64,000 nucleotides of DNA from a virus (lineage: Duplodnaviria; Heunggongvirae; Uroviricota; Caudoviricetes), in the IMG/VR virus record IMGVR_UViG_3300042892_003674; one strand, 5' to 3'. Below the pieces are notes generated by a model. It was not told the origin of the DNA, made no database searches, and saw only the letters and a program-made list of their open reading frames with translations. A program made the translations under genes and the position numbers. Each line of letters starts with the position of its first letter. Position 1 is the stretch's first letter. Below are positions 4,327 through 60,689 of this stretch, one piece after another.

Positions 4327-5153
4327 TAGACATAGATTATTCAAACGGAAAGATTAAGATAAACACCGGTGATTTAGCTGGATTATTCACTAATCTACCT
4401 TTAAAATTTAAAATAAAGAAAGTTATTTCAAAAGAAATAGTTTGGGAAACTGACTTATATAGTTTTATGTGGGCGGAATTTGGTACAAATGAGATCAATG
4501 ATGTTATCGTAGAAGATAGTTTAGGTAATTTTGTTTATCAGTATCACTGGGATGTAATTCAACACGGTTCTATCTTTTATAAATCATTGTGGTTATATTG
4601 TAAGTCATTGATAAATCGTGGTGTGAAACCACGTGGAGTTGTTGTGGGAACACATGATGGAGAGTTTGGTGAATGGGTTCCATTAGTGAGAAACTTTATG
4701 TCTGATATGTTATTAGTAGAAGCATCACAGAAACAATTTGATAAACTTCATCAGAACTTTATTGATAAACCAGGTATTATATTTCTAAATGATTTGATTA
4801 CAACTGATGGCTCTGATGTTGAGTTCTTTGAAGGTGGTGCTGGTTACACGAATACTGTGGTTGAGAGAGTTATTAGACATTGGGAAACAGAGGAAGTTCA
4901 TTCATCAAAAAGAACATCGACTAGTTTTAATACTTTGATTGAGAGCTATGGTAAGGTTGATTGGTTACATTTAGATGTAGAGGGATTGGATGCAAAGTTA
5001 TTGATGTCATTAAAGGAAGAGAATATACCTAATTTTATAATCTTTGAAGATTATAATTTGGACACTGAAGAGTTTAGTAAAGTATCTACTTTTTTTAAGG
5101 ATAGAGGGTTTAGATTACATTCGGAAGGTGGAATATGTATGGCTTTTAAATAA
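4323..5153 (+). CDS. FkbM-family methyltransferase
   Basis: VVVGTHDG SAM loop, LLVEA, DWLHLDVEGLD, IIFE. Confidence 0.8.
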   Translation: MIDIDYSNGKIKINTGDLAGLFTNLPLKFKIKKVISKEIVWETDLYSFMWAEFGTNEINDVIVEDSLGNFVYQYHWDVIQHGSIFYKSLWLYCKSLINRGVKPRGVVVGTHDGEFGEWVPLVRNFMSDMLLVEASQKQFDKLHQNFIDKPGIIFLNDLITTDGSDVEFFEGGAGYTNTVVERVIRHWETEEVHSSKRTSTSFNTLIESYGKVDWLHLDVEGLDAKLLMSLKEENIPNFIIFEDYNLDTEEFSKVSTFFKDRGFRLHSEGGICMAFK

Positions 5154-5535
5154 AAAACCATCCAGATGGGTTATGTGATATATAATATTCTGATAAGGAT
5201 AAATATAATCTAACTTCTTCTTCATCAGCACCAGTCATATCCATTATTTTATGCTTAATAGTAGGATATTCAATCTTTATTTTATATAAAGATTCTTGAA
5301 TTCTATTAAATAAGTTAGATCTCATCTCAACTCTTTTAATGAATTCATTTATTGAATTGGATAAATTGATTGATGAACTATCTGCCATATCAATAGTAAT
5401 CTCACAAGTTTTATTATCTGTGTGAAACTTAATTATAAAGTTATCTTCGTCGATAAAATCAACGAAACACATTTCAATATAATCTTTATCAATTATATCT
5501 TGGTCTATATTTTCAAATAGTTTTATGTATTTCAT
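5146..5535 (-). CDS. putative capsid-packaged protein (CTS-like N-terminus)
   Basis: MKYIKLFEN; FVDFIDED motif. Confidence 0.65.
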   Translation of the reverse strand: MKYIKLFENIDQDIIDKDYIEMCFVDFIDEDNFIIKFHTDNKTCEITIDMADSSSINLSNSINEFIKRVEMRSNLFNRIQESLYKIKIEYPTIKHKIMDMTGADEEEVRLYLSLSEYYISHNPSGWFFI

Positions 5536-5536
5536 A

Positions 5537-6019
5537 TTATATTTCGTTTTTAACTATTGTAATTGAAATTGATATAAAGTCTCTACTCCATACTTTTTCA
5601 TCTAATACATGAAAGTAAGTATCATTTGCAGTAACTGCGTCTTGTCTAATAATCTTCTCGATCTTTGCACCATTCCATCTTCTGTCTAACAAAGCTAGAA
5701 GTGTTTCAAAACAGTCAGTTATCTTATCTTTAAATTCTTCGGACTTATTGTTCTGTACTGTTCTTTGGAAATCTACTACATCTTCATCTTGGTCCTTATG
5801 TCTTACAAGTCTAATATAAACAACATTACATTGATTATAACTTTCAGCCATACGAGTTGTATAATCATTGATACGTGACTTAACTCTTTGTTGTAATAGA
5901 ATTTGTGGTGAAAATCCTTCATCTATCAAATCAACAAAAATCATTTTAATTGTCTCTCTGAATTGATCTAGTTCTTCTTTACCTTCTTTTAACGATTCAA
6001 GTGTTTTTACGTATCTCAT
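5537..6019 (-). CDS. putative capsid-packaged protein (CTS-like N-terminus)
   Basis: MRYVKTLES; FVDLIDEGF motif. Confidence 0.65.
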   Translation of the reverse strand: MRYVKTLESLKEGKEELDQFRETIKMIFVDLIDEGFSPQILLQQRVKSRINDYTTRMAESYNQCNVVYIRLVRHKDQDEDVVDFQRTVQNNKSEEFKDKITDCFETLLALLDRRWNGAKIEKIIRQDAVTANDTYFHVLDEKVWSRDFISISITIVKNEI

Positions 6020-6020
6020 A

Positions 6021-7301
6021 TTACATATCCATTTCTAATTCATCATCACCTTCTCTATCAGGATCATATCCATAAACATCAGCTCTGTGTTTATTCATCA
6101 TTGACATAAATGTTTCATCACCTAATTCAATACCATAACTTTCAATTTCTTTCTCAAGTTTAACCATCTCATCATTTAATGGTCCCCACTCATCTCTGAA
6201 TAATTTTATAGATTCTTCGTTTCTACCTTCTTTGTTTAATTCTTGTATTTTTTTATTTACAACTTTAAATCTTGTAGTTATGTCTCCCATTCTATCGATT
6301 GTATCTAAAATAGGTTCATCATCCATTGAAAATAGATCTAATCTTTTCTTTTCTATATCAGTTAAAGATGTTAGGCCAGTATCATTTATCTTATCTAATA
6401 ATTCATTAAACTCATCTGTTTCAACAAATTTACTTTTCTCAAAGATTTGATTGAATTGTGTAAAGTTTTGTATATTACTTTCAAAACTGTATTTCTTATT
6501 AAGATTATCTAACATTCTTTTGGCAGCATTCAATTCATTTTGAAGTGCTTCTTTATCAGAACCGCTAGCTCTTTTTAATTGTTCTTCTCTTAATTTAACT
6601 GTATCTTTTAAGTTTTGATACATTGCTCCTTTTGGATGATCTCTCCACTTTGGTGGTGTACTACTAGATCTTTGTTGAGAAGAACCACTTGATCTACCTG
6701 ATGAACCTGATGAAGAACCTTTTCCATAACTATCATATCTATCGTAACCAGATCTACCACTTGCAGGTCTTGATGTACCCTTCTTAATCATTTCATTTGC
6801 TAAATCTATAAATTTACCTGACCATATAGAACCAAGTGTATAAATATGAGTTTCCGATTCTAACTGGTATCTATTATCAGTAGAATTCTTATACATTCTG
6901 ATAACTTTCCCATTCTCAAATGTATAGTAGAAAGCAGTTTTACCATTTCTTTGTGGTGTACTAATCTTATCTGAATAACGAGCTGAAGTAAAATCTGAAA
7001 TTATTGATCGATAAAGAGTATTAAGATCTCTTTCAATTTTTTCTTGCTGTTCTCTTTCATCTGCTTCTTTTCTCCAAGCATTATATCTATCTTGTTGTTC
7101 TTTTCTCTCTTTTTCTGCTTTTTCTCTAGCTTCTGCTCTTTTTTTAGCTTCTGCTCTAAGTTTATCTTGTTTTTCTTTTTCAAGTTTAGCGGCCTTTCTT
7201 TTAGAAGGTTCGCCACTAATATCATCACCAGTATTGACTTCAAAGTCAACAAAGTTTCTTAACCACTCTGGGCTTCTGTATTTAGCTTCATTCAATTTCA
7301 T
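6021..7301 (-). CDS. hypothetical multi-segment protein (coiled coil, S/G-rich linker, DUF6576-like helix)
   Basis: 426 aa; MKLNE start, internal IQNFTQFNQIFE, ELLDKINDTGLTSLTDIEK. Confidence 0.7.
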   Translation of the reverse strand: MKLNEAKYRSPEWLRNFVDFEVNTGDDISGEPSKRKAAKLEKEKQDKLRAEAKKRAEAREKAEKERKEQQDRYNAWRKEADEREQQEKIERDLNTLYRSIISDFTSARYSDKISTPQRNGKTAFYYTFENGKVIRMYKNSTDNRYQLESETHIYTLGSIWSGKFIDLANEMIKKGTSRPASGRSGYDRYDSYGKGSSSGSSGRSSGSSQQRSSSTPPKWRDHPKGAMYQNLKDTVKLREEQLKRASGSDKEALQNELNAAKRMLDNLNKKYSFESNIQNFTQFNQIFEKSKFVETDEFNELLDKINDTGLTSLTDIEKKRLDLFSMDDEPILDTIDRMGDITTRFKVVNKKIQELNKEGRNEESIKLFRDEWGPLNDEMVKLEKEIESYGIELGDETFMSMMNKHRADVYGYDPDREGDDELEMDM

Positions 7302-7364
7302 ATTGTATATATTAAAGTTTTTAAACTAAAAGTAATTTTTTAATATAAAAAAGAAAACACAATT

Positions 7365-8171: not shown

Positions 8172-8214
8172 ATACTATATATTATTTTTCTATAGCAAAG
8201 ATACGAATTTTTAC

Positions 8215-8781: not shown

Positions 8782-9015
8782 TTATTTTAAATTTTCATTA
8801 AGTTTCATTTTTTCCAATTGTTCTTTAAACTCTTCAATAGTTCTAAAGGAACTTATAGGTGCGGCAGAAACAATTTTCTTATCATTTACAACCCAATGAT
8901 ATCCAGTATCATATATATCAGGATCATTTATAAAACGATAAACCCTTCCATAAGTAAAGTTGTGTAACTTCTTACTGGTACAAACCATTAAACCTTTAAT
9001 AACTCTTACTATCAT
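8782..9015 (-). CDS. hypothetical protein
   Basis: 77-aa ORF with ATGA overlap to the upstream gene. Confidence 0.65.
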   Translation of the reverse strand: MIVRVIKGLMVCTSKKLHNFTYGRVYRFINDPDIYDTGYHWVVNDKKIVSAAPISSFRTIEEFKEQLEKMKLNENLK

Positions 9016-9350
9016 TTTAAAATTTCAATAAGTTTTTCGTTTCTAATATTTTGTAATGATAACATTTCTTTACCGAAGTCAGTCAGTTCATAAGTTATGT
9101 GCCAAGCGTCTTCAACATGATCTATTAAGTTATATTTTAATAGTTCTGAAGTTAGGTAGTAAGTACCACCGTGATTACGATTTAAAAAATAATCTTCTGT
9201 TTGAAAGGTAGTTTTATCATCATCTACACGAAAATCTTCTAATGATTCCCAACGAGTATCTCTATACTCTGCGTAACCTTCTTTCTGAATAGAAAGTAAG
9301 AGAGTATATGCGTCATCAGATAATTCAAATGTGTACGTAAATGTTTTCAT
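9012..9350 (-). CDS. hypothetical (winged-helix-like) protein with C-terminal motif
   Basis: YELTDFGKE; ends IRNEKLIEILK. Confidence 0.7.
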   Translation of the reverse strand: MKTFTYTFELSDDAYTLLLSIQKEGYAEYRDTRWESLEDFRVDDDKTTFQTEDYFLNRNHGGTYYLTSELLKYNLIDHVEDAWHITYELTDFGKEMLSLQNIRNEKLIEILK

Positions 9351-9354: not shown

Positions 9355-9406
9355 CAAATATAATAAAAATAATTTTAAATATATTAAATAATTTTACATA
9401 TATTTG
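9355..9406. promoter_or_regulatory. divergent pair of Bacteroidota-type promoters
   Basis: TATATTTG on the minus strand (9355-9362) and the plus strand (9399-9406). Confidence 0.7.
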
Positions 9407-9418
9407 CATATAATAATT

Positions 9419-9625
9419 ATGAAGAATATACTATACTTTTCTAGTTTATCACCAGTTGAAAGAGTTTCATTCATAGAAACATTACCTTTCTGTGAATTGG
9501 TAGTACTTAGAAATATATTAGAAGAAACTTATCAACAAAATGGTATGTGGGAAGCTTATGTAATTCAATGTGATAAAGAAATAGCAAAACGTAGAGAAGA
9601 TAAAATAAACGAAATATTAAAATGA
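9419..9625 (+). CDS. hypothetical protein with C-terminal motif
   Basis: Start re-called to MKNILY; ends RREDKINEILK. Confidence 0.7.
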   Translation: MKNILYFSSLSPVERVSFIETLPFCELVVLRNILEETYQQNGMWEAYVIQCDKEIAKRREDKINEILK

Positions 9626-10326
9626 AACCAAAATTATATTATAGAGTAGATGAAAATGGTGTACCGTTCGATAACTTTTGTTCGGATGCAGCCATTGGTG
9701 CCAATGATGCAGGAATTGAATGTATTCCTTTCTCTGACATAAAACAAGTCAATATGAATCCTTACAACATCGTTGTAACATCTGTTGAGGAATCGCTAGA
9801 GTGGTTATGTCAAAACATTCAGGCAATTGATGATAAATGGGCCACTGACTTTAAGAAAAGAAAAGAAGTTATTACAACTATAGATGAAATAACTGAGTAT
9901 CCTTGTTTTATCAAACCTTACAAACATATTAAAGCATTTACTGGTATTGTTGTGAGTGATGTAAGAGAAGCTAAGTTATTCACACAAGATTTTAAAGATA
10001 GTGTTTCTTGTCAAGAGATTGTAGAATTTGAATCTGAGTACAGAGTTTATATTCATAAAGATAGAGGTATCTTAGGAGTTAAACATTACTTAGGTGATCC
10101 TTATATTGTACCTGATAAATCTTTTGTTGATGAGATTTATCAATTGTCGAAGTCTAACTTAGATCAAAATAGTTATACATTAGATATTGGTATAGATGAT
10201 AAGGGAACTAACTATTTGATTGAAATAAATGATGGTTGGTCAGTTGGTAATTATGGTTTGAACCCAAGTGATTACTTTAGTTTTGTTAAATCTAGATGGT
10301 TACAGATAACAGGAATTTTAAAATAA
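9622..10326 (+). CDS. ATP-grasp protein (R2K/DUF4343-like)
   Basis: PCFIKP, KAFTG, SEYRVYI, YTLDIG, LIEINDGWSVGNYG. Confidence 0.8.
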   Translation: MKPKLYYRVDENGVPFDNFCSDAAIGANDAGIECIPFSDIKQVNMNPYNIVVTSVEESLEWLCQNIQAIDDKWATDFKKRKEVITTIDEITEYPCFIKPYKHIKAFTGIVVSDVREAKLFTQDFKDSVSCQEIVEFESEYRVYIHKDRGILGVKHYLGDPYIVPDKSFVDEIYQLSKSNLDQNSYTLDIGIDDKGTNYLIEINDGWSVGNYGLNPSDYFSFVKSRWLQITGILK

Positions 10327-10331
10327 GAAAT

Positions 10332-10892
10332 ATGAGTAATAAGTTTAAGTTTATTTTATTCCATTTTTTTGGAATTAGTTTGGTTATTTTAGGTGCAATT
10401 TTATGTACTTATTTAGGTAAAATATGTCTTAAAGATGAGAACTCTGGTTTACCGGAGTTGTTTTTCTCCGGTTTATTCTTCTTTTTAATATGGTGTTTAA
10501 TAACAAATGGTCTTATAGGTGGTGCCATAATGGATGGTAAGAAAAGTATATTTAACTATCTTTTGAATTTTAAGAGATATAGAAATATAAAATGGATTTA
10601 TCATTCTGAGTTAGGTTATTTCCCATCAGTAATCGGTAAGAAAAAACTTTTATTATATAGACAGAATATATTTACGGTAGATGAACTATTGGATATAGAT
10701 ACTAGTGGTCGTAGTATAAAGTATATATCTGATACTGCTAAATCTCACTTAGATTGGCTTTATAAAAATCAATTAGATGATAATAAAAGAGCAGAACAAA
10801 TTAAGGCTAAGAATGATGAAATTAGAAAATGGGATGGATTTTTAGATGTTCCTTCACGAAGAGATAAAAAAATAGACGAACTACTTAAATAG
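10332..10892 (+). CDS. two-TM membrane protein with C-terminal motif
   Basis: Two hydrophobic segments; ends RRDKKIDELLK; start re-called to MSNKF. Confidence 0.7.
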   Translation: MSNKFKFILFHFFGISLVILGAILCTYLGKICLKDENSGLPELFFSGLFFFLIWCLITNGLIGGAIMDGKKSIFNYLLNFKRYRNIKWIYHSELGYFPSVIGKKKLLLYRQNIFTVDELLDIDTSGRSIKYISDTAKSHLDWLYKNQLDDNKRAEQIKAKNDEIRKWDGFLDVPSRRDKKIDELLK

Positions 10893-13072: not shown

Positions 13073-13550
13073 TAGAATTTATTTTATGTTCTCTCATATC
13101 AATAAAGTATTCATTAAACTCACCTTCTGTGATATAAATCTTTTGATTTTCTGCAAATACTACTAAGTTTTCATTTGGAAAAAATCCTTCTAACTCACAA
13201 TATAAATAAGTAATACTAGGATAAAACTTGGCATTTGACTTTACTTGAAAGAATTTAGTACAAACACAGAACTTTGTTGGATATGGTTCACCATTATATT
13301 TAAAGATAAATGCTTCTAACTTTCTTTTCTTTAGAACCTTTACACGATTGTATATAATTACTTTATTATGAATTTCCTTCTTGTGTTTATCAAACTCTTT
13401 TACAAGTGGTCCTCTCTCTAATCCTAACTTATCCGCAAACTTCTCAGGTGAGAAACGGATGAAACCATTTAGTAAATCAATATTATCCTCATCAACATCT
13501 AAGTTTTTAACTTTTTCAATCCATTGATTTAATTCTTGTAAACTATTCAT
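13062..13550 (-). CDS. hypothetical protein with C-terminal motif
   Basis: Ends MREHKINSIIY. Confidence 0.7.
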   Translation of the reverse strand: MNSLQELNQWIEKVKNLDVDEDNIDLLNGFIRFSPEKFADKLGLERGPLVKEFDKHKKEIHNKVIIYNRVKVLKKRKLEAFIFKYNGEPYPTKFCVCTKFFQVKSNAKFYPSITYLYCELEGFFPNENLVVFAENQKIYITEGEFNEYFIDMREHKINSIIY

Positions 13551-14636: not shown

Positions 14637-15170
14637 TTATTTTTTAATTATCTCATAGTTATTATTATCTAACCATTCTATAAATTCAGAGTTTAATCCA
14701 CCCTGTTCAGCATCTGGATTTTGTGACCAGAAATTGTATAGTATACCATCAAATCCTTTCCAATTACCATCTTTAAATATTTCAAAATCATTATCTTCTA
14801 ACCAATCTGATAATCCTATGTAATCTTTATCATAATTACTTCTCCAAAAATCATATAATAATTTACCACTTTTAGAGTTTATTGATATATCTAAATCATC
14901 ATCACTTGCTATATAACTTTCATTCCAAGAAGGTTTTCCCATACCATCTTGCCACCCACCTCTACTATCGTTACTATCATCATAATGTTTATCATCTCTT
15001 GGATACATTCCGTCTGGATCTTCTTTACGAACTCTTTCTTCTCTTTCTTCTCTTTTCTTAGCATCTTCTTTAGCACTATGTGGGAAGTTAGAAATTTGAT
15101 TTCTTTTAGCTTTTTCTTTATCTTTCTTATCAAGATCAGAATAATCTTCAAATGTTTTTAAGTTTTTCAT
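14637..15170 (-). CDS. putative capsid-packaged protein (CTS-like N-terminus) with an internal repeat
   Basis: MKNLKTFEDY; two copies of LYxFW...WLxxNxxEI. Confidence 0.7.
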   Translation of the reverse strand: MKNLKTFEDYSDLDKKDKEKAKRNQISNFPHSAKEDAKKREEREERVRKEDPDGMYPRDDKHYDDSNDSRGGWQDGMGKPSWNESYIASDDDLDISINSKSGKLLYDFWRSNYDKDYIGLSDWLEDNDFEIFKDGNWKGFDGILYNFWSQNPDAEQGGLNSEFIEWLDNNNYEIIKK

Positions 15171-15176: not shown

Positions 15177-15542
15177 TTATTTTAATTGTTTTAGTATAAC
15201 TTGAATAACAGAATCTACATCATCTGCATTATAATCACCAAGATTTTCTGTTATACCACCATCTTTTTCTACAGTAACTACTACAGTTGTGTTGTTATCA
15301 GTCAGTGATAAACTAAAAGTTAAGTCCTCTAGTACAAACTTTAAGTAGTCATTAAACATTTTACCGAATCTAACATCCGATAGTTCACGTATTTTAGTGC
15401 CATATATGTCACGTTGTAATTTATACCATATTTCAATCAGTGATGTGGTAGGTTTCAATAAAGTATCTTTAGAATCTCCTCTTTCAATGAAAACTGAGCC
15501 ATACTTTCCACGACTTTCGTTAAAACTTTTTAAGTATTTCAT
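15177..15542 (-). CDS. putative capsid-packaged protein (CTS-like N-terminus)
   Basis: MKYLKSFNES (start re-called). Confidence 0.7.
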   Translation of the reverse strand: MKYLKSFNESRGKYGSVFIERGDSKDTLLKPTTSLIEIWYKLQRDIYGTKIRELSDVRFGKMFNDYLKFVLEDLTFSLSLTDNNTTVVVTVEKDGGITENLGDYNADDVDSVIQVILKQLK

Positions 15543-15606
15543 AATCTGCATTATTTTTATAATGTATATATAAAAAAAATCAAGCTAAAAACTTGATTTT
15601 TTATCA

Positions 15607-31655: not shown

Positions 31656-32537
31656 ATGAAGTATTTAAAACGATTTGATGAGAGATTAGGTATATCTCAA
31701 GACATGGAGCAACAAGTTGATGATTATATGAAAACTATTAGAAGTAAACCAATTTCAAAAGTTTTTAAATTACTTTATAAATGTGATTTAGGTAATTATT
31801 ATTTTAAACTAGTGATAGATCCGAAAATAACTAGTGAAGGTTATTTTACTAGTGATCCAAGTTCAATTACTGGATTAGAAATCCATTTAAAAGATAGAGA
31901 GGATGAATCAACATTATTACATGAGGTTAAACATTTAGACTTTCATTTAAGAAAAAAAGGTAAAACCAAAACAAACTTTACTAAAGCACAAAAGTCTATA
32001 AGTAATGAGACACGAAATAAAGTTAGTAAAAGAACTTTAGGATTATTAGAACATATTTTTTATATCTATGATGAGAATGAGTTCCAATCTAAATATAATT
32101 CATTTTATAAGGATTTTGATTTATTTTTATCAAAACAGAATAAGAATTTTACTACAAGTGAAATAACAGAACTATTTTTTGATTATCAACAATGGAGTGA
32201 AGATGGTATTTTTAGTTGGTATACCGTTGCTAGTGATTATAAATTTAATTTTGAAAGATTTGTTGATAAAGATGAGTTAAGAGTAGTATTTAATTATATT
32301 ATTTTAGAGCAAGAAAGAAGAACATTTAAAAACCCTTATTTAGATTTTCTTAGTTATTTAGTTACAGATATAAAGAAAAATATAAAAATTAAGTTTAAAT
32401 TATTCACTGATAAAGAAAAAATGGAAATAGAAAAAACTATTAGATTCTTTGAAAAAGATATAAATAGGAGAATACAGAAGTATAAAAAAAGAATGTCACG
32501 TATAGTAACTTTAGCTTGTGAAAAATATGTAAAATAA
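31656..32537 (+). CDS. HExxH zinc metallopeptidase-like protein with CTS-like N-terminus
   Basis: MKYLKRFDE; TLLHEVKH with downstream ENE. Confidence 0.65.
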   Translation: MKYLKRFDERLGISQDMEQQVDDYMKTIRSKPISKVFKLLYKCDLGNYYFKLVIDPKITSEGYFTSDPSSITGLEIHLKDREDESTLLHEVKHLDFHLRKKGKTKTNFTKAQKSISNETRNKVSKRTLGLLEHIFYIYDENEFQSKYNSFYKDFDLFLSKQNKNFTTSEITELFFDYQQWSEDGIFSWYTVASDYKFNFERFVDKDELRVVFNYIILEQERRTFKNPYLDFLSYLVTDIKKNIKIKFKLFTDKEKMEIEKTIRFFEKDINRRIQKYKKRMSRIVTLACEKYVK

Positions 32538-32564: not shown

Positions 32565-33938
32565 TTAATCTTCTAATCCTTCTGTTTTCTTTGTTGCAAT
32601 TATATAATTAAAGTTACTTGATAAGTCAAACTTATATTTAGCACTTAACTTACCAGACATCTCACTACTAAATTTAATTACAATTGTCATATCTAATAAT
32701 TTAGTTCCATCTAACTCTAATTTCATTTTGATTTTAAAGTCATTACTTTCTTCTTCTTCACTCACAGTAAAGTTTACATGATAGTCAAACTTAATAGTTA
32801 AGTCATCATAATTTTTACGGAAGAAATCTCTCTCTGGTAAATAGTTGAATATGTTACCATTACTGCCTAAGTAATAAACTGGTCTTTCCATACAACCCAT
32901 TTTCTCTACTAGAGTTTTAAATAATTTCATTTTAACCGCACCTTCTGCTTGTTTAAATCCGTCATCTAGTTTTTTAATATCATCTGCGAAATTGGATTTT
33001 AATGATGTTGTAAATAAGTTTTCAAGTATTTTAGAATTTAGGATAACAATCTTAGTTTCCATCCACTCAGAATAAACTCTTTCAGGGTCCATGAAACAAT
33101 TATCTCTGTTTTTCCATATTTCTGTCATCAGATCAGGAAATTTAAGAATATTTTTATTAAAGTCTTTAATAAATTCTCCTAAGTGTTTATATTTATGATC
33201 AGAATGTCTTAAATCAAAGTATTCAAAGTAACCTAAACTTTCTATTCTTTTAGGGTCAATGAACTTTTCAATATGTAATTGAATGTTTTTATTTGCATTC
33301 TCATATAAAATCTTAACCCATTCTTGAGTTAGTTTATCCCATTTAGGCAAGTATTCTTGCTTAAATAATAAATCTAAATCTTGTCCAATTAATTCATCTG
33401 CAAATGTATTAAATGATGCAGTCTTTTGAGAAGATAAGTTTTTATTTAAAAAGAAAGAATATTGTTTACCACTATTTAATTCAATGATAATATCTTCTTG
33501 ATGTTCATCATCTTTGTTTGGTCCTAACCAAAAAATTGTTTTAATATCATCTTTTGTTAGTTTATCATCTGGAATTAGTTTATCTATGATATTTCTTGCT
33601 GTAATACGTGCATTTACAAGAACGTTCCAATCTTTTTCAATGTCGAACTCAATTTCATCAAATAAACCATTTATTTTAGATGTTTCATCATCTTCTATAC
33701 ATCTATCTCCTTCAAACTTTCCTAATTGTAATCTGTTCTTAGCTAATAAAAGATTTTTTAAATCTGTTAAAAATATACTTGAGTTTTCTGAGTATCTTGC
33801 TTTTAAACCTCTGTCTAATATGTTATCTAAAAATTCATTGTTTATAAGTACCATACTAACACAGATTTCTGTGATGAGGTTCTTATTAGAATATGTCTTA
33901 GATTCTTTAAATATTTCAAAATTTCTTAACCACTTCAT
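32565..33938 (-). CDS. hypothetical protein with CTS-like N-terminus
   Basis: MKWLRNFEIFKES; 457 aa. Confidence 0.75.
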   Translation of the reverse strand: MKWLRNFEIFKESKTYSNKNLITEICVSMVLINNEFLDNILDRGLKARYSENSSIFLTDLKNLLLAKNRLQLGKFEGDRCIEDDETSKINGLFDEIEFDIEKDWNVLVNARITARNIIDKLIPDDKLTKDDIKTIFWLGPNKDDEHQEDIIIELNSGKQYSFFLNKNLSSQKTASFNTFADELIGQDLDLLFKQEYLPKWDKLTQEWVKILYENANKNIQLHIEKFIDPKRIESLGYFEYFDLRHSDHKYKHLGEFIKDFNKNILKFPDLMTEIWKNRDNCFMDPERVYSEWMETKIVILNSKILENLFTTSLKSNFADDIKKLDDGFKQAEGAVKMKLFKTLVEKMGCMERPVYYLGSNGNIFNYLPERDFFRKNYDDLTIKFDYHVNFTVSEEEESNDFKIKMKLELDGTKLLDMTIVIKFSSEMSGKLSAKYKFDLSSNFNYIIATKKTEGLED

Positions 33939-33996: not shown

Positions 33997-34632
33997 ATGA
34001 AATACTTAAAAAAATATAACTCTTACAAAGAATCCATCGTAATAGACTTAATGTTTCAAAATATGATTGAGCTATTAGAATCATTGACTATTTGGCACGA
34101 CGCACTTCTTAGTGCCATTGGTGCAGAAGAAGTTGATATTTTTAATACATTTCAGTTACCGGTACAGGAATATAAAGATAAATTAGATTTAGACTTTTTA
34201 GAAGATCATGTTGAGTTTATAAACTCTTTATCAAGTATAGCACTTAAAAAGTCTGTACTACAACACTCTGATGACTATTCCACTTTTATTAATAAACCCT
34301 GTAAGTTTATGTTTGTCTATGGCATCAATAGAAATGAACTAGAGAATCCAGAATACTTATTATTTCAATCTTGGCAAGAAACTTTAGAAAAATGGGATGA
34401 CGTTAAGCTTTTTAAAGTAAATGATGATGTTAAAAAGTTTTATGATAAGTTATCTTCTAGAACTATTGAATTGATAGATGGTGATGAGAATTACATTTAT
34501 ACAACTGCAAATGGTAATGAGTGGATTCTACAGAATATTGATAAAGAAAACGATATATATAAGAGAGTATTCAGAAAGGAAGAACTACAAGATTTCTTGT
34601 CTGAAAGAAATATAAAAGTAAATATATTATAA
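33997..34632 (+). CDS. hypothetical protein with CTS-like N-terminus
   Basis: MKYLKKYNSYKES. Confidence 0.75.
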   Translation: MKYLKKYNSYKESIVIDLMFQNMIELLESLTIWHDALLSAIGAEEVDIFNTFQLPVQEYKDKLDLDFLEDHVEFINSLSSIALKKSVLQHSDDYSTFINKPCKFMFVYGINRNELENPEYLLFQSWQETLEKWDDVKLFKVNDDVKKFYDKLSSRTIELIDGDENYIYTTANGNEWILQNIDKENDIYKRVFRKEELQDFLSERNIKVNIL

Positions 34633-39538: not shown

Positions 39539-40027
39539 ATGGAAAAATTCAATCTTATAGATTTATATAAAATTAAAAGTCGATTGATTAAAGAATCGAT
39601 GACAACTGAGCCTTTGTGGTTTGAAGTTTTGGAATCAATTAAGTTGATTGAAGATAGAATTTTTGAAGATACTTCTGCAACTGGTGGCCCAGTTGTTGGT
39701 GGAGGTGGTGGAATGACTGGTAATCCTATTTCATTAGGAAAAACTCCACTTGGTCCTAAATGGGCATCAGGTGGTGGAGATGATAAAGGTTATATAAACA
39801 TTCCTTATAATCCAGGTGGTGCTGATAGAATGATGCAAAGAGTTCCTGTAATGGGTACGGGTCATGGTCCAAGAACTGGTAAGAAAACAAGAGAGAAAAG
39901 ATTAGACATAAATGCAATTAGAAAGTCTTTAGCACAAAGAAAAGATTTCCAAAGAAAAGAAGGTGAGAAAAAAGTTATGGATTTTGATAACTTCACTAAA
40001 GATGAAGTAAATACTATTAAGAAATGA
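39539..40027 (+). CDS. hypothetical Gly-rich protein
   Basis: LIKES and IFED (possible processing sites), Gly-rich core. Confidence 0.7.
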   Translation: MEKFNLIDLYKIKSRLIKESMTTEPLWFEVLESIKLIEDRIFEDTSATGGPVVGGGGGMTGNPISLGKTPLGPKWASGGGDDKGYINIPYNPGGADRMMQRVPVMGTGHGPRTGKKTREKRLDINAIRKSLAQRKDFQRKEGEKKVMDFDNFTKDEVNTIKK

Positions 40028-40728
40028 GAAAAGTAAAAAGTTATGAAGACTTCTTAAATGAAGAAATCAATTTAAAGAAAGTTTTAGTTGGTGGTGCTTT
40101 AGCGGCAAGTTTAGCTGCATGTGGACCAAATGATAATAAAAGGTCGATTGATATTGAACCTTATGGAACTGAAAGAGTTCAAGAGGTAAAAACTTTTGAC
40201 CAAATTCCAACTACGTTTAATATGGATCAAGAACTACTTACTTTTGGAATGGATATGAATATTACTTCGGGTGGTGACACTTATGGTAAGATAGAAGAAA
40301 GAACTATGAATTGGGGAAGAACATTTGAATTATTTGATAATTCAAATAATAAAATTGCAACAGCTAATGAGGAAGTTCTTAGTTTATATACTGATATAAA
40401 AATTAAGGATGAAAACGGTAAACTTATAGGCTCATTAGAACAAGAAATTATGGATTCAATGTTCTCAATATATTCTATCTATTCGATCAAAGATGCTCAC
40501 GGTAAGGTAATTGGTAAATCAGAGAAGTTAGACTTCTTTACAACTGAGATTGATATAGTTGATAATTCTGGAAATTCGTTAGTTAGTCTAGATAAAGAAT
40601 TTATGTCTATTGGAGATTCTTGGAGTGTTAAGACAAATGGAACACTTGATAATAGGATAGTTGTTTTCATACCTGCATTTGTGAGTGCTGCTCAAGCTGA
40701 TAAAGCATCTGAAAAAAATGATAAATAA
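40024..40728 (+). CDS. LURP-one/scramblase (Tubby C-like) protein with lipobox and CTS-like N-terminus
   Basis: MRKVKSYEDFLNEE-INLKK-VLVGGALAASLAAC; repeats of I-x-D-x-x-G-x-x-IG-x-x-E. Confidence 0.7.
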   Translation: MRKVKSYEDFLNEEINLKKVLVGGALAASLAACGPNDNKRSIDIEPYGTERVQEVKTFDQIPTTFNMDQELLTFGMDMNITSGGDTYGKIEERTMNWGRTFELFDNSNNKIATANEEVLSLYTDIKIKDENGKLIGSLEQEIMDSMFSIYSIYSIKDAHGKVIGKSEKLDFFTTEIDIVDNSGNSLVSLDKEFMSIGDSWSVKTNGTLDNRIVVFIPAFVSAAQADKASEKNDK

Positions 40729-41513
40729 TGAAACATTTAAGAACATATAAAACATTTGAAAAAAACACTATTAAAGGTGGTAAGTCTGATAACTTGTCTG
40801 TAGAAGATATTGCTAAAAAGTTTAATGTTCCGGTTTCCAAAATAAAAAATCAATTAGATTTAGGAATCAAAGTTGAATCCGAACATACTGATAGTAAAGA
40901 ACAACAAAGAGAGATTGCTATGGACCACTTAGCTGAAATTCCAGATTATTATGATAGATTAAAAAAGATGGAAGATCAAGGTGAGAAAACATTTGAAGAG
41001 ATACATATACACGATAGATGGGAACAACAATCTATTGAAGAAGAAGATATAAAACAATTCGCAGAAACTTTATTTGTAAATCTATTAGATGATGGATTCA
41101 CAGTAGAAACTAGTGTTATTTATAGTGAGTATTCACAAGTATCATTACCACATAAAACAAATGCCATAATGGATAATCCTAAGAAATATGTAGAATTAAG
41201 AATTAGAAACGTTTCTGGAAGTGCGGCAGGAGATTATGGTAGTGAATTTCTTTCAGGTGTTAAGTATTCATATATTTCAAATGAAGTACAAACATTTGTA
41301 GATTATATGAAACGTAAGTGGAAAATAATAGATGTTACTTATGAATATGAAGAACTATTACCAGATGAAAATATAGGTGCATATACTAAAGTAATAAAAA
41401 AATCAAAAGAACCTTCTAAAAATGCTGAATTTTTTAACGGTAAATTTAACTTAACAATTAAACAATTAGATAAAGAACCTAATATGTTCCAACGTTTCAT
41501 CAAAAGATTTTAA
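40728..41513 (+). CDS. DUF5661-like protein with CTS-like N-terminus
   Basis: MKHLRTYKTFE; GIKVESEHT...EIAMDHLAEIPDYYDRLKKME. Confidence 0.65.
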   Translation: MKHLRTYKTFEKNTIKGGKSDNLSVEDIAKKFNVPVSKIKNQLDLGIKVESEHTDSKEQQREIAMDHLAEIPDYYDRLKKMEDQGEKTFEEIHIHDRWEQQSIEEEDIKQFAETLFVNLLDDGFTVETSVIYSEYSQVSLPHKTNAIMDNPKKYVELRIRNVSGSAAGDYGSEFLSGVKYSYISNEVQTFVDYMKRKWKIIDVTYEYEELLPDENIGAYTKVIKKSKEPSKNAEFFNGKFNLTIKQLDKEPNMFQRFIKRF

Positions 41514-45991: not shown

Positions 45992-46327
45992 ATGAAAAAC
46001 CTATTATCATTTGACCTTTTTGAAGGTAAAGCTGAGAAAGCATCTAAAAATCCTTATGGAAATAAAACTAAAGAGGATAAAAAAGATCAATTAAGAAAAG
46101 CAGTTGAAGATCATATCAAGACTAAAGATTGTAAAGCTAAACAAGTTGGTGATGATTTTGAAATTCATTGTGATCAAAAACAAAAACATATTGGACAAGT
46201 TATGTTCCGTAATGATGTAATAACTGTTAAGAAAAAAGGAGAAAAATTCGGTGAAGAATTTAAGTATAATGAATTAGGTAAAATTAAAGCAGAAATAACT
46301 TCAGTTATCAAAGACTGTTGTGAATAA
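45992..46327 (+). CDS. putative capsid-packaged protein (CTS-like N-terminus)
   Basis: MKNLLSFDLFE. Confidence 0.7.
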   Translation: MKNLLSFDLFEGKAEKASKNPYGNKTKEDKKDQLRKAVEDHIKTKDCKAKQVGDDFEIHCDQKQKHIGQVMFRNDVITVKKKGEKFGEEFKYNELGKIKAEITSVIKDCCE

Positions 46328-48773: not shown

Positions 48774-48858
48774 TTAATTAAATTATTTTTTAATTATAGA
48801 AGAAAAGGAAAATAAGTTTTATTATTTAATATATAGTTTAATAAAAAGTTTGTATATT

Positions 48859-49290
48859 ATGAAATATTTAAAAATGTTTAATGAAATGTTAGATCCAATG
48901 GGAAGTTGGAATCCTAGTCAATTAGATAATAAAGAGGATGAGTACGATGGAGTACCTTCAAGTTATGATGAGGATGGTGAAATTATTATTGAAGATGATG
49001 CAGATGATTTTTGTACTAAATGTGATTGTATACCTTGTCAATGTACTGATGAAGAATATGATGAGGATTTAAGAGAGAATAGTAATAGAGGAACTTTTGG
49101 TTACTTTAATACAATGACTAAAGAAGAACTACTTGATTATCAAAAGAATTTTGAACATGATTTTGAAAATCCTGCTGAACACGATCCAGAATATGTAGCT
49201 TGGAAAACAGCGTGTGAACTTAAAGGATGTTTTGAAAGAGAACCATTTGCACGTACTAGAAAAGAAAGTGAGTTTCCTAGTAAATACTAA
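48859..49290 (+). CDS. acidic protein with CTS-like N-terminus and Cys cluster
   Basis: MKYLKMFNE (start re-called); CTKCDCIPCQC. Confidence 0.7.
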   Translation: MKYLKMFNEMLDPMGSWNPSQLDNKEDEYDGVPSSYDEDGEIIIEDDADDFCTKCDCIPCQCTDEEYDEDLRENSNRGTFGYFNTMTKEELLDYQKNFEHDFENPAEHDPEYVAWKTACELKGCFEREPFARTRKESEFPSKY

Positions 49291-49291: not shown

Positions 49292-49318
49292 AAAAAAGAG
49301 AGCTAATGCTCTCTTTTT
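49292..49318. terminator. bidirectional terminator, GAGAGC family
   Basis: A6-GAGAGC-TAAT-GCTCTC-T5. Confidence 0.85.
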
Positions 49319-52491: not shown

Positions 52492-52848
52492 TTATTCTGA
52501 TTTTGGTAGAATTTGATTTAATTTAATTTCTCTTAACTCTTGTAAAGAAAAATCAATATATTCAGAAGAAGAAAGACTTATTGTATAATCATTATTAAAT
52601 GAATTTTTACCTACTATTCTATATCTTCCATTTTCTTGTGTCACTTTATAATCATCAGGTAGTTGATTAAGATCTAGAACATTATCATATCTATCCCAAA
52701 CAATTTCATACTTACCTATCTCTTTATATTTAAGAAGACCTTTAATTTGTCCTGTTGTATAAAGTTTTAAACCATTTAACTTTCGTCTGGTGTTTAACTT
52801 ATCTTTTAATTTTTTTATGAAATATGTTTTGAACAACGGACTATTCAT
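52492..52848 (-). CDS. hypothetical protein with C-terminal motif
   Basis: Ends LREIKLNQILPKSE. Confidence 0.7.
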   Translation of the reverse strand: MNSPLFKTYFIKKLKDKLNTRRKLNGLKLYTTGQIKGLLKYKEIGKYEIVWDRYDNVLDLNQLPDDYKVTQENGRYRIVGKNSFNNDYTISLSSSEYIDFSLQELREIKLNQILPKSE

Positions 52849-53311: not shown

Positions 53312-53393
53312 TTGTTATATTTTTTACTAGTTATATCTTTTATTAGATAATGGTTTTTAAAAAATAATATATACTTAAAAATAATACACTAAA

Positions 53394-54413
53394 ATGAGAT
53401 ACTTGAAAAAATATGAATTATTCAGAGAACCAGTAAATGAAGAATTTTTAGGTGCTTTATATAATGCTGCAAAGGGAGCGTTAAAAGCTTTTTTAGGTAA
53501 AATTTCAGAACCATTTAAAACTGCTAAAGACGAATTTAAAAAAGGAATGGCTAGAGAAGAAGTAAAAAAATCTATGATTACTAAGATGGATGCTTTACTT
53601 AAAGGAGCAACTGATGGAATTAATAAAGCAGAGGATGAGACTGCACTGAATGCAATGAGAGAAGATTTCAGAAAAGAAATTGATAACCAGATTGTAGAAT
53701 TTGATAAAGAAATAAAAACGGTTAAAGAATCAGTTAATACTATAAATGAGGGTAAAGTACAAGATGCTTTAATTGGAGCAAGAGTTGCCTTTGGTATGAT
53801 TAAGAAAAAATCAGCAGAGTTAAAATTAGAATTTGATAAGAAATATGCTGCGGCAGTTGATCTAGCTGGTAAGAAAAAAACCGCAATTGAAGAAATTACA
53901 ACAGTTGTGAATGATTTTAAGAAAACTGTTATGAATGATGAGATATTTAAAAAAGAAGAAGCTGAATATAAAACTGTAAATAAGATTGTTACTACTCCAG
54001 AATATAAAGTAGGTGATGAACTTATCTATTTAAGAAAAGGTCAACAAAAAACTGCATGGGATGCTTTAACAGATGAACAAAAGAAAGCACCAACTACTGA
54101 TCCTGCTGCAAAGTTGATAGTTAATGTTAAGAAAGTTGATAAAATAGAAGGTGATAACTATACGTTTACTGGTAAAGATGGTAAAACTATTGTTAAAACT
54201 TCGGTAGATATAATTGGTAAATCCGGTGCAGAGACTGGTGTAGATGTAACTGCAGATTTAACTAAAAAGTTAGGTGAACTTAAAACAAAAAGTCCAGATG
54301 AACTGAAAAAAGTTGCTAGTTTTGTTGATTTTATAAATAAACCGGAGAATGCAGATAAATACACTGAAATTGAAAAAATAATTTCTCCAGAAGCTACAGG
54401 AGCACAAGAATAA
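53394..54413 (+). CDS. helical protein with CTS-like N-terminus (internal head protein candidate)
   Basis: MRYLKKYELFRE.VNEE; further VKES and INE sites. Confidence 0.75.
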   Translation: MRYLKKYELFREPVNEEFLGALYNAAKGALKAFLGKISEPFKTAKDEFKKGMAREEVKKSMITKMDALLKGATDGINKAEDETALNAMREDFRKEIDNQIVEFDKEIKTVKESVNTINEGKVQDALIGARVAFGMIKKKSAELKLEFDKKYAAAVDLAGKKKTAIEEITTVVNDFKKTVMNDEIFKKEEAEYKTVNKIVTTPEYKVGDELIYLRKGQQKTAWDALTDEQKKAPTTDPAAKLIVNVKKVDKIEGDNYTFTGKDGKTIVKTSVDIIGKSGAETGVDVTADLTKKLGELKTKSPDELKKVASFVDFINKPENADKYTEIEKIISPEATGAQE

Positions 54414-55830: not shown

Positions 55831-55857
55831 AAAAAGAGAGCTCATGCTCTCTTTTTT
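55829..55857. terminator. bidirectional terminator, GAGAGC family
   Basis: A7-GAGAGC-TCAT-GCTCTC-T6. Confidence 0.85.
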
Positions 55858-56554
55858 AGTTTTCCCAATCAGTATCTTTGTGAGACAAGTCGTCATCAAC
55901 AAGTGATTCTAACATTTTAGAAATACTATTGTATCTAACTTTTCTTCCATATAAATTAGTAATATATAATTCTGTTTCACTTACATAAAGTACGTAATCT
56001 AATTCTCCAGTACTAAAGTAATAATTTACATTAAATCGTACTGCATCACCTACACCAAAAAACTCACCTCTACCTCCAGTATTAGTGTCTGTCTTTTTAA
56101 GATTTTCTCCTAAAAACTTTATAGTACTAATTTGTTGTTCATTTTCATGATAACCTTCTGCTGAATCTTCATCATCATTATCAAATGAGTGTGATGTTGT
56201 TATCGCAAATGTAGTTTGATTTGTAACTCTATTATATCCATAATCATGTACACCTAATAATTCTATATAAAATTCTCTAGCTAAGTCATATTGTGTTTTA
56301 TTTACTCCTTCGTGATGTTCAAAGATAAAATCTAATTGTTCTTGATTAAAGTCAAATATACTTTCTGGTAAAGTTTTTGCAAACTCTGTTACATTATTAG
56401 TTTTTCTAAATTCAAGAATACTTCTTATTGAAGCCATTTCTTCTTGAAGTTCTGTCATTTGTAATTGAAGATCTTCTAACTTACTTTCTAATGTTTCTGT
56501 ACTGATTGCATTGAGATAAGTTGATTCCTTTATAAATTCTAAATACTTTTTCAT
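55856..56554 (-). CDS. putative capsid-packaged protein (CTS-like N-terminus)
   Basis: MKKYLEFIKES, very close to the T4 CTS MKTYQEFIAE. Confidence 0.75.
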   Translation of the reverse strand: MKKYLEFIKESTYLNAISTETLESKLEDLQLQMTELQEEMASIRSILEFRKTNNVTEFAKTLPESIFDFNQEQLDFIFEHHEGVNKTQYDLAREFYIELLGVHDYGYNRVTNQTTFAITTSHSFDNDDEDSAEGYHENEQQISTIKFLGENLKKTDTNTGGRGEFFGVGDAVRFNVNYYFSTGELDYVLYVSETELYITNLYGRKVRYNSISKMLESLVDDDLSHKDTDWEN

Positions 56555-56600
56555 ATTAAGTATATATAAAACTTTTCATTTCAAAATCAATATAAACAAA

Positions 56601-59102: not shown

Positions 59103-59250
59103 ATGTTATTGTTTTTTTATTTCTACAAAGATAAGTAATTATATTTAATATACAAATAATTCTTTTAGTTTCTTGTTTATTTTTTTAGTTATCAACAATT
59201 ATTATTTGTGTTTCAAAGATATGTATTTTATTTTTAATATATACTATTGT

Positions 59251-59916
59251 ATGAAACATTTAAGAGTATTTGAAAATTTTGATAAAAAAGAAGATCAGTT
59301 TGATATTGAAAATGTTATGCTTTATATGGTCAATGTACTTGACAATTATAAAGTAAACTTCTTTGATGTTGATAATAATATGATCAATTCTAATGATGAA
59401 AATATAAATGACTTTCAACTAACAAAAGATTATCATAGTGTTAGAAGAAGTAGATTTATGGTAGAGATTATGCAAGATGGTCATAATCCAATAAGTATTC
59501 ACGAGGTTGCAGAGATTTCAATTGAAATGAGTACTACTATAAAACACTTAGAAAGAGAAGGTTGGATTTTATCTAGTTATCACCTTAATCAATCTAAAGA
59601 TAGAGATACTGGTAAAGTTGTATTCTATTATATTCATTATACTTTTTCAAAAGAAGATCAAGAAATTGAACCTACTAAAAGTTTACAAGATACTATATCT
59701 ACTAATACAATATTAAGAGCATTTAAAAAAGAAGGTATTGAAATTGAAAAACAAGATATTAAACATTTAGATGATTCTATTGAAATTGAAGATTGGTACA
59801 CTGAGTATCTATCAAATAATCAAGTAGAAGATTCTCTTGATAAAATAACAGATCTTTTAGGTGCTACTGAATGGGAATGGTATCATGGAACAAATGGTAT
59901 AAGATTTCAATTTTAA
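59251..59916 (+). CDS. putative capsid-packaged protein (CTS-like N-terminus)
   Basis: Start re-called to MKHLRVFENF, after TATATA at 59238-59243. Confidence 0.75.
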   Translation: MKHLRVFENFDKKEDQFDIENVMLYMVNVLDNYKVNFFDVDNNMINSNDENINDFQLTKDYHSVRRSRFMVEIMQDGHNPISIHEVAEISIEMSTTIKHLEREGWILSSYHLNQSKDRDTGKVVFYYIHYTFSKEDQEIEPTKSLQDTISTNTILRAFKKEGIEIEKQDIKHLDDSIEIEDWYTEYLSNNQVEDSLDKITDLLGATEWEWYHGTNGIRFQF

Positions 59917-60260
59917 GAATATAAAAAGTCTTGATATTTTTCTTCATCAGTTAAATCTATCTCAATAACACAATCTTTCTTTAAAGGTGTAGTAAATACA
60001 ACACACACAGATTTCAAGTATTCTGTTTGAATTCCATTCAAAAGTTCATCTAAAATTAAATCTCTTTCATCTTCTTTAGTAAGTTTCTCACCTGTGTCGA
60101 TATAGATGTTTATCTTCCACGGGAGACGTTTATTTACAAAAGTCATAACTGACTGCTTATAAACATTTGGTTGTCTTAATTGTCTTTTAAATGTAAAAAC
60201 TGCAAAGATTACAACTCTTACAATATAATGGTGATAAACTTCATTTATATCTAATTTCAT
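59913..60260 (-). CDS. hypothetical protein with internal motif variant
   Basis: ERDLILDELL. Confidence 0.65.
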   Translation of the reverse strand: MKLDINEVYHHYIVRVVIFAVFTFKRQLRQPNVYKQSVMTFVNKRLPWKINIYIDTGEKLTKEDERDLILDELLNGIQTEYLKSVCVVFTTPLKKDCVIEIDLTDEEKYQDFLYS

Positions 60261-60290
60261 TTAATATATATAAATAAAAATACTATATCA

Positions 60291-60689
60291 ATGAATATAA
60301 AAAAATATGTTGATGAATTTATTAGTGAGTATTCTAAAAAGTATGATTTAAGATTAGGTAAATCATTCAATAAAGAAAAGGCAAATTGTTCTTGGTTTAC
60401 CGATGTTTTTTATAAGTGGGCAAGAGAAAAGGATTTACCAGTCAAGGTAATTTATTTTGATTCTGATAAAGAAGCACATATTGTACCTATTATTGATAAT
60501 AAGGTTATTGATTTCACAATCAAACAATTTACTAAAAATCCTAACGATGATTATAAGATTACAAAGCCAGGATATTATAAAAAGTATGGTTATGATAAAT
60601 TTGAAATATTAGATAAAGTACCAAACTGGATAACAATTAGAAAGGCAGATAAAATACTTGAAAGAATAAAAAGATATGATCAGTTTTAA
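60291..60689 (+). CDS. small papain/transglutaminase-like Cys-His-Asp protein
   Basis: ANCSWF...AHIV...VIDFTIKQF. Confidence 0.55.
   Translation: MNIKKYVDEFISEYSKKYDLRLGKSFNKEKANCSWFTDVFYKWAREKDLPVKVIYFDSDKEAHIVPIIDNKVIDFTIKQFTKNPNDDYKITKPGYYKKYGYDKFEILDKVPNWITIRKADKILERIKRYDQF

Follow-up and report, generated by a model that had tools for sequence, protein, structure and literature searches.

The DNA analyzed here is a stretch of 64,000 nucleotides (the window) from the IMG/VR virus record IMGVR_UViG_3300042892_003674, a member of the Caudoviricetes. It has a base composition of 29% G+C, contains ∼79 open reading frames (ORFs) on both strands and has a gene content of the large-myovirus type. 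Roughly one gene in six begins with a version of the same short peptide, termed here the tag, which is present in canonical form on 13 ORFs and as a variant on one further ORF among the 79. The consensus of the tag is M-[KR]-[YHW]-[LIV]-[KR]-x-[FY]-x(0-4)-E, and variants of the form M(L)KKYxEF[ILV]xE and MIKKFxLFES were also recognized. The tagged genes and the other features discussed below are collected in Table 1.

The window is part of an uncultured giant phage of Bacteroidota-type bacteria. A megablast search against phage records returned no close match to the window. By tblastn, the nearest records were the uncultured huge phages LR745206 (635 kb) and LR756502 (642 kb), followed by LR756504, LR756501 (735 kb), LR756500 and the Lak phages, and the identity of cultured Bacteroidota phages to the window was at most ∼26%. 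Relatives of 476 and 483 kb were found in IMG/VR. The 483-kb relative (G001), which is 98% complete and yields 630 greedy ORFs, was used as the main comparison genome; a second relative (G002) is 97% complete. From 10.9 kb onward, the window is syntenic with the region from 455 to 405 kb of G001.

The tag is real, specific to the N terminus and modular. The six-frame translation of the window contains 12 occurrences of the strict motif M[KR]x[LIV][KR]x[FY], 11 of which lie exactly at the start of an ORF (121-457 amino acids (aa)). No occurrence was found inside the called window proteins. Of 2723 internal methionines, 2 are followed by the motif, and on this background the binomial p for its presence at 11 of 79 ORFs is ∼3e-22. 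When the ORFs of the window were scored with a position-specific scoring matrix (PSSM) for the tag, the distribution was bimodal, with 13 ORFs at 8.9-24.5 and the next best at -2.2. Similarly, 75 of the 630 ORFs of G001 pass the tag PSSM, compared with 1 of 2252 internal methionines. A preliminary description of this DNA had listed 14 clear N termini of this kind, all of which are present: 13 make up the discrete PSSM class, and the fourteenth, MKKYLEFIKES, is a genuine variant that scores negative. The positions quoted there were the low ORF coordinates, which correspond to the stop codon for genes on the minus strand; therefore, six minus-strand N termini lie at the high end (5535, 6019, 15170, 15542, 33938 and 56554). 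At three genes the tag starts at an internal ATG of the longest ORF (15542, 48859 and 59251). The first of these codons lies three codons inside the ORF, and 59251 is the true start within a longer TTG-initiated frame.

Table 1. Features of the window. Positions are those of the whole stretch; pN/pS is the ratio of non-synonymous to synonymous differences between orthologous tags, and a slash within a tag precedes the residue after Glu.
Position (strand)	Feature	Length (aa)	Tag	PSSM score	Promoter-like motif	Remarks
1107-1388	C-tagged gene					
1352-2047	Gene				TAnnTTTG upstream	
5146..5535 (-)	Tagged gene	129	MKYIKLFE/N	18.3	Unit 7301->5146, head AATATATA at 7306-7313	Last gene of unit; L-F-E ends at residue 8
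5537..6019 (-)	Tagged gene	160	MRYVKTLESLKE, relaxed, Leu7	8.9	WATATATA unit shared with 5146	
6021-7301 (-)	DUF6576 protein				Head of unit holding two tagged genes	Start untagged
9012-9350	C-tagged gene					
9404-10892	C-tagged gene					
13062-13550	C-tagged gene					
14637..15170 (-)	Tagged gene	177	MKNLKTFEDY	20.2	Unit head TATATATA at 15565-15572	No homologue in G001
15177..15542 (-)	Tagged gene	121	MKYLKSFNES	21.6	Promoter-like motif 22 nt upstream of tag ATG	F-N-E ends at residue 9
16514-21958 (-)	Collagen protein	1814			WATATATA at head of gene	13 collagen triple-helix repeat stretches
31656..32537 (+)	Tagged gene	293	MKYLKRFDER	20.2	AATATATA at 31644-31651, 4 nt before ATG	pN/pS 0.07
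32565..33938 (-)	Tagged gene	457	MKWLRNFEIFKES		Divergent promoter region at 33959-33970, shared with 33997	Conserved virus-only family; pN/pS 0.18
33997..34632 (+)	Tagged gene	211	MKYLKKYNSYKES	24.5	Divergent promoter region at 33959-33970, shared with 32565	Orthologues tagged; pN/pS 0.38
40024..40728 (+)	Tagged pre-lipoprotein	234	MRKVKSYEDFLNEE	12.8		Tag, then type II signal peptide INLKKVLVGGALAASLAAC, then LOR/YxjI beta-barrel
40728..41513 (+)	Tagged gene	261	MKHLRTYKTFEK	22.9	Unit 39539->41513, head TATATATA at 39527-39534	No homologue in G001
43317-45041	gp6-like baseplate wedge					phrog_219
45992..46327 (+)	Tagged gene	111	MKNLLSFDLFEG, relaxed	9.2	Unit head AATATATA at 45314-45328	L-F-E ends at residue 11
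48859..49290 (+)	Tagged gene	143	MKYLKMFNEM	21.6	AATATATA at 48828-48835, 23 nt upstream	
49317-49595	C-tagged gene					
52492-52848	C-tagged gene					
53394..54413 (+)	Tagged gene	339	MRYLKKYELFRE	24.5	AATATATA at 53366-53373, 20 nt upstream	
55856..56554 (-)	Tagged gene	232	MKKYLEFIKES, variant	Negative	TATATATA at 56561-56568, 6 nt upstream	
57468-59102	Gene				TAnnTTTG upstream	
59251..59916 (+)	Tagged gene	221	MKHLRVFENF	21.0	AATATATA at 59236-59243, 7 nt upstream	
61331-61684	C-tagged gene					
62633-63769	ATPase				TAnnTTTG upstream	phrog_1297; AAA_3/AAA_5 matches weak

The variant class is linked to the canonical one at a distant locus, where LKKYLEFIKES stands in frame at the start of an orthologue of the canonically tagged 457-aa protein. 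G001 contains seven KYxEF[ILV]xE N termini, six of them outside the PSSM class, together with eight starts of the MIKKFxxFxES type; all of these variant starts fall in the same promoter class as the canonical tags. By contrast, the six weaker copies proposed in the preliminary description (at 6021, 11687, 14068, 22392, 45353 and 60291) all score negative on the PSSM, and no support was found for its C-terminal echoes of the tag. The C-terminal tag of this genome is another one, R..K[IL]..[IL]L. At the first of these loci, residues 12-23 of the DUF6576 protein (EWLRNFVDFEVN) are tag-like but without a Met.

A glutamate is found at residue 8-14 in all 61 strict tags and occupies position 8, 9, 11 or 12 in 59 of them. 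The pattern hydrophobic-x-Glu lies within residues 5-16 of 78% of tags, as opposed to 25-27% of controls, and ends at residue 8-13 in 12 of the 14 window tags. The usual endings are IFES, LFES, FNES and FKES.

Many start codons are preceded by the promoter-like motif WATATATA (for example, at 7306-7313, 31644-31651 and 39527-39534), and two spacing classes were observed, at 4-7 and 19-31 nucleotides (nt); the short spacing implies nearly leaderless mRNAs. A second motif class, TAnnTTTG, resembles the -7 box of Bacteroidota sigma-A. Genes were assigned to co-directional units. In the window, WATATATA units contain 13 of 13 tagged and 32 of 66 untagged genes (p 4e-4); in G001, they contain 69 of 75 tagged and 218 of 555 untagged genes (p 2e-19). 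Units with the TAnnTTTG motif only hold none of the 75 tagged but 65 of the 555 untagged genes of G001. Among genes with at least 40 nt of free upstream DNA, WATATATA was found at 27 of 30 tagged and 105 of 257 untagged genes. The motif also precedes the portal, protease-scaffold, capsid and neighboring peptidase genes of G001, and the host-type (TAnnTTTG) units hold thymidylate synthase, ligase, polynucleotide kinase and RNase H. A role for WATATATA as a late-specific promoter was ruled out, since the class is common to replication genes. Thus, the claim made here is limited to the tagged genes belonging to a phage-type, and not a host-type, promoter class.

An alternative explanation is that the common start is a feature of the nucleic acid or of translation. 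It could be a 5′ coding sequence that aids initiation where mRNA leaders are short or missing and the host does not use Shine-Dalgarno pairing, or a recombination handle for moving gene cassettes, and the peptide itself would then be functionless. Such a role would fit the many tagged mRNAs that may be nearly leaderless, the motif often ending only 4-7 nt before the ATG, and the tagged genes that are swapped in and out of fixed slots. In addition, the Tyr3 codon is TAC in 19 of 37 tags (51%; window and G001 combined) as against 18% genome-wide (p 6e-6), so some codon-level constraint exists. However, comparison of orthologous tags in three families showed differences at 59-76% of synonymous sites, as against 5-23% of non-synonymous sites (pN/pS 0.07-0.38). 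Given that the synonymous sites are near saturation while the residues are kept, selection acts on the tag peptide and not on the DNA. Leu4 is encoded by five different codons, and the substitutions observed (K/R, L/I/V, F/Y and Y/H/W) include exchanges, K/R, L/I/V and F/Y, that preserve chemistry rather than bases. Furthermore, 41 untagged genes share the same 4-6 nt motif spacing, and tags are also carried by operon-internal genes with overlapping stop and start codons. A nucleotide-level element was rejected on the pN/pS test, and an explanation of this type is very unlikely.

The carriers share a common layout, in which an indel-rich linker joins the tag to a conserved body. The bodies are mutually unrelated, with a mean column identity of 5%, and structure predictions are consistent with the tag being a flexible appendage on unrelated proteins. 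Of 120 close homologues of the 457-aa protein, 116 retain the pattern MKW[LIV][KR]x[FY]x[LIF]F[KR]E[SA]K, and the AlphaFold 2 model of this protein has residues 1-16 at a predicted local distance difference test score (pLDDT) <50, followed by a confident body. No function was obtained for this protein from the ESM Atlas, and Foldseek returned no match in the PDB. Homologous bodies are known both with and without the tag, as seen for window 11687-13072 in comparison with G001 1363-2613 and in the LOR family. A Sec or lipoprotein signal peptide was ruled out as the identity of the tag: tags are charged and without a hydrophobic core, and the sole true signal peptide among the carriers lies behind the tag and not within it.

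Carriers are soluble proteins with a median length of 160 aa (range 50-575 aa) and are spread over the whole genome. Transmembrane-like segments are found in 3% of carriers, compared with 14% of other proteins (p 0.005). When 86 carriers were searched against Pfam, 89% were without any match, and lysozyme, NUDIX, GNAT, S-adenosylmethionine (SAM)-methyltransferase, DUF5661, DUF6576, LOR and DUF326 were matched once each; the matches with a recognizable activity (lysozyme, NUDIX, GNAT and methyltransferase) are all to enzymes. Among the tagged proteins of the window, only DUF5661 and LOR were matched, and a PHROGs search of the same proteins gave nothing useful. A homologue in G001 is present for 4 of 11 tagged as against 35 of 48 untagged window genes (p 0.03), and the slots of tagged genes are refilled in G001 by different tagged genes; the slot corresponding to 40728..41513, for instance, is occupied by other tagged genes. 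Thus, the carriers are mostly accessory and swappable, as are the T-even ip loci.

The distribution of the tag was assessed by counting matches to a back-translated tag pattern and to a reversed control pattern in each record. Counts for tag and control, respectively, were 119 and 13 in LR756502, 96 and 7 in LR745206, 62 and 9 in G002, 59 and 15 in LR756504, 34 and 15 in LR756500, 20 and 11 in LR756501, 15 and 7 in Lak-B5, 12 and 3 in pT24, 5 and 4 in PAU, and 3 and 0 in MaF61. In LR756501, starts of the MIKKFxLFES type are found in place of the canonical tag. In the uncultured phages of 0.48-0.64 Mb, the tag is carried by 12-16% of ORFs, corresponding to 75-90 carriers per genome. Judged from these records, the tag is confined to a clade of uncultured phages of 0.46-0.74 Mb with a T4-type head module, and Lak-B5, pT24, PAU and MaF61 are taken to lack it. 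The same comparison bears on whether the leader could be the recognition sequence of a modifying enzyme, following the logic of ribosomally synthesized and post-translationally modified peptides, with a radical-SAM protein as the enzyme. A radical-SAM protein of ∼300 aa is indeed encoded in G001, LR745206 and LR756502, but no radical-SAM (PF04055) match was found in G002 and LR756504, both of which are rich in tags. Moreover, the carriers are folded proteins encoded genome-wide and not clustered beside one enzyme. Given that the enzyme is not present in every tag-bearing genome, this explanation was rejected and is regarded as extremely unlikely.

The head module of the clade was examined in G001, which encodes a gp20-type portal, a gp23-type capsid protein and a 713-aa protease-scaffold protein (135766-137907). 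The last of these matches phrog_207 (E 1.6e-30), with PF03420 below threshold at 20-23 bits, and its protease domain is 29% identical to T4 gp21. The sequences GEFDHP and VSSRAAG of G001 align with GELNHP and VSSRGLG of T4, which are the sites of His85 and Ser140. Homologues of the prohead protease were found in about eight to nine further related records, ranging from huge uncultured phages through the cultured phages pT24, PAU and MaF61. The preliminary description had pointed to a gp21-like protease as the enzyme to look for, and a T4-type prohead protease with aligned catalytic His and Ser is thus encoded in relatives. The homologue in Lak-B5 (492.7-493.2 kb) can be read only if TAG is read through, with several in-frame TAG codons, three of them counted within the matched stretch, consistent with the stop-codon recoding known for Lak phages.

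From its N terminus, the protease-scaffold protein of G001 comprises the protease domain, a coiled coil, 11 tandem 14-residue repeats, an acidic low-complexity stretch and a C-terminal domain. The repeat, NIxYSEY[IL]AENLDK, contains one [IL]-A-E site per copy. In addition, LNES is found just past the protease domain, LFES just past the repeat block, and KNES and TNES in the C-terminal part. T4 gp22 contains IFES, LFES and LIAE, and T4 gp23 has LTE/A at residues 63-65. A phmmer search of the protease-scaffold protein against PDB sequences returned a designed coiled coil only, reflecting the repeats. Repeats are present in G001, G002, LR745206, LR756502 and LR756501 and degenerate in LR756500, and none were found in Lak-B5, pT24, PAU and MaF61. 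Two side observations concern the repeats: the core EYIAE resembles EFIAE of the T4 leader, and an 83-aa mini-ORF of LR745206 (∼460.4-460.7 kb, minus strand) consists of about four scaffold-type repeats (YIAESLEKNISYSEYISENL...) and ends in RKKKIKNLFN, which is similar to the C-terminal tag.

These sequence comparisons, the promoter class common to tagged and head genes and the cargo-like nature of the carriers suggest that the tag is a portable N-terminal leader that is probably removed. We put at about an even chance that it would be a removable capsid-targeting leader, representing a hugely expanded version of the T4 capsid targeting sequence (CTS) read by a T4-type scaffold and protease. 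Here, the leader would attach soluble accessory proteins, once synthesized, to the scaffolding core of a T4-type prohead, and the S77 (gp21-like) prohead protease would clip it after Glu. The cargo would then remain in the head and enter the next host with the DNA.

The T4 CTS is the closest precedent for such a leader, and according to Mullaney and Black (1996) the CTS of IPI, IPII, IPIII and Alt is reportedly removed by the gp21 prohead protease. It consists of ∼10 residues and is cleaved once; ∼1000 molecules of internal protein are present per head, and the cargo is polymorphic and has anti-restriction activity (PMC3012670; 10.1101/2021.01.19.427310). As in T4, where the leaders read MKTYQEFIAE/A and MKTFKEF...ITE/A, the tag is a short peptide of ∼10 residues at the extreme N terminus of unrelated proteins, with an M-K start, an aromatic or hydrophobic face that includes Phe7 and a Glu ending. 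Homologues of gp20, gp21 and gp23 are found in relatives, and the carriers are polymorphic and accessory. The variant MKKYLEFIKES shares 7 of 10 residues with MKTYQEFIAE, and only this minor class, KYxEF[ILV]xE, resembles the T4 CTS. Unlike the T4 leader, the canonical tag is basic at positions 2 and 5 and often ends in F-x-E or x-F-E rather than L/I-x-E, and the protease is fused to a repeat-rich scaffold.

Several observations weigh against a T4-like function in capsid targeting. On the tag PSSM, the T4 CTS sequences obtain -13 and -30, so that the relationship is one of resemblance and not of demonstrated homology. The CTS-like reading in the preliminary description is partly supported. The canonical [LI]-x-E is present in only 39% of tags (controls, 14-16%), and many tags end in x-F-E. 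The number of carriers (75-90 per genome, compared with four or five in T4) is of a scale without precedent. The carriers are acidic, with a median isoelectric point of 4.8, unlike the internal proteins of T4, which are described as highly basic (10.1101/2021.01.19.427310). The head module was observed in relatives and not in the window's own genome, and no cultured phage was found to carry the tag in the record comparisons made here. The number of scaffold repeats does not track the number of tags, LR756501 having ∼13 repeats and few tags; furthermore, repeats and tags co-occur within one clade, effectively a single evolutionary event, and their association is therefore weak evidence. With regard to expression, the untagged WATATATA genes include the tail sheath gene along with genes for helicases, topoisomerase II, ribonucleotide reductase, methylases and a Lon-like protease, and a search with T4 gp55, made without a positive control, gave no late sigma factor match in five relatives. 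Finally, in one conserved carrier the tag is followed by a lipoprotein signal peptide, an awkward arrangement unless the tag masks the signal.

The carrier in question is the pre-lipoprotein encoded at 40024..40728, the body of which matches PF04525. Homologues down to 50% identity retain both tag and signal peptide (for example, MKHLKTYKSYSIDEE and MKYLNKYNDFKVNEE). In every tagged homologue the leader ends in [LIV]-[NDS]-E-E; no variation was seen at the lipobox Cys. Three homologues at 36-40% identity, the most distant ones, are without a tag and start directly with the lipoprotein signal peptide. In the AlphaFold 2 model, residues 1-45 have pLDDT <50 and residues 1-52 are disordered or helical, whereas the barrel is confident. 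Cleavage of the leader in the head would unmask an export signal, because the leader directly adjoins a complete type II signal peptide. This arrangement can be read in two ways: the acidic leader may hide the export signal up to the moment of clipping, or the tag may have its role in the producing cell.

Action in the producing cell is the basis of a further explanation, in which the tag would be an address or degron for another phage machine, such as a Lon-like ATP-dependent protease or a chaperone, that times the folding, localization or destruction of non-early proteins, and the carriers would never enter the head. Such a role would account more readily for the tagged pre-lipoprotein, and basic-aromatic amphipathic N termini are plausible ligands for Lon or chaperones. 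Full-length Lon-like proteases (phrog_4871, E ∼1e-250) are encoded in G001 (in a WATATATA unit), LR745206 (423200-425299) and LR756501 (352520-354730), and no Lon match was found in LR756500 and pT24. By contrast, the tag is enriched in LR756500. A degron leaves unexplained the conserved Glu-Ser ending and its likeness to LNES and LFES of the protease-scaffold protein and to IFES and LFES of T4 gp22, and T4-type head machinery, which is known to recognize leaders of this kind, is present in the clade. This explanation is possible but unlikely.

The second tag, R..K[IL]..[IL]L (C-tag), marks the C terminus of 6-11% of the ORFs of these genomes. In the window it is present on nine proteins (for example, with the endings RDIKINEILK and REIKLNQIL), none of which is N-tagged. 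Among the 112 carriers of either tag in G001 (75 + 37), none has both (p 0.015), and only 2 of the 37 C-tagged genes lie in WATATATA units, the rest being in units with host-type or no recognized promoters. Thus, both tags of these phages are portable but occupy opposite termini and never the same protein. The existence of a second, mutually exclusive tag means that a two-tag sorting logic exists here, which counts in favor of the tag as an address for a Lon-like protease or chaperone.

Capsid targeting by the N-terminal tag can also be compared with systems other than T4. In the phiKZ-like phage SPN3US, the gp245 protease cleaves on the C-terminal side of Glu and favors Ser at P1′; 9 substrates are known, most of the propeptides have 111-254 residues and no common leader, and 42 head proteins are uncut (PMC10052503). 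The likeness lies in a giant-myovirus head with many internal or ejected proteins and in the E-S ending frequent in the tags, and the difference lies in the one short common leader found here on ∼15% of all ORFs. The cargo-loading peptides of encapsulins are likewise short and portable and bring unrelated cargo into an HK97-fold shell, as is proposed for the tag. Their usual location is the C terminus, and they stay attached to the cargo and bind the shell protein, with no scaffold or protease involved. In a literature search for "capsid targeting sequence", none of the matches listed concerned huge uncultured phages by title or abstract; the texts of the "Mahaphage" papers were not searched for the tag. 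In the jumbo-phage survey of Iyer et al., the terms "capsid targeting" and "internal protein" do not appear.

The remaining gene content of the window includes an R2K ATP-grasp protein, a Dam methylase, a phosphoribosyl pyrophosphate synthetase and a MazG-like protein, in addition to the baseplate wedge and ATPase listed in Table 1. The 1814-aa collagen-repeat protein is probably a fiber or whisker protein, and its region is locally richer in G+C (37% as opposed to 29%).

A more elaborate scheme combines these elements. Here, two mutually exclusive portable tags would sort the proteome: the C-tag would mark proteins outside the phage-promoter regulon, and the N-terminal tag would mark 75-100 proteins destined for injection, which would bind the 14-residue acidic repeats of the protease-scaffold fusion and lose the leader by cleavage after Glu. 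One such cargo would be a masked pre-lipoprotein that becomes lipidated in the next host before phage gene expression. As a whole, this scheme is quite doubtful. Nevertheless, should it hold for the pre-lipoprotein, masking would represent a new route by which an envelope protein reaches a cell.

The genomes of huge phages contain hundreds of genes without an assigned purpose. If the tag is indeed a capsid-targeting leader, then a seventh of these genes would encode pre-made head cargo, and a large part of this coding capacity would be an injected arsenal of host-takeover or anti-defense proteins. The tag would then provide a simple sequence rule by which injected proteins could be spotted in metagenomes, and the tag and protease together would constitute a ready-made loader of foreign proteins into very large capsids.

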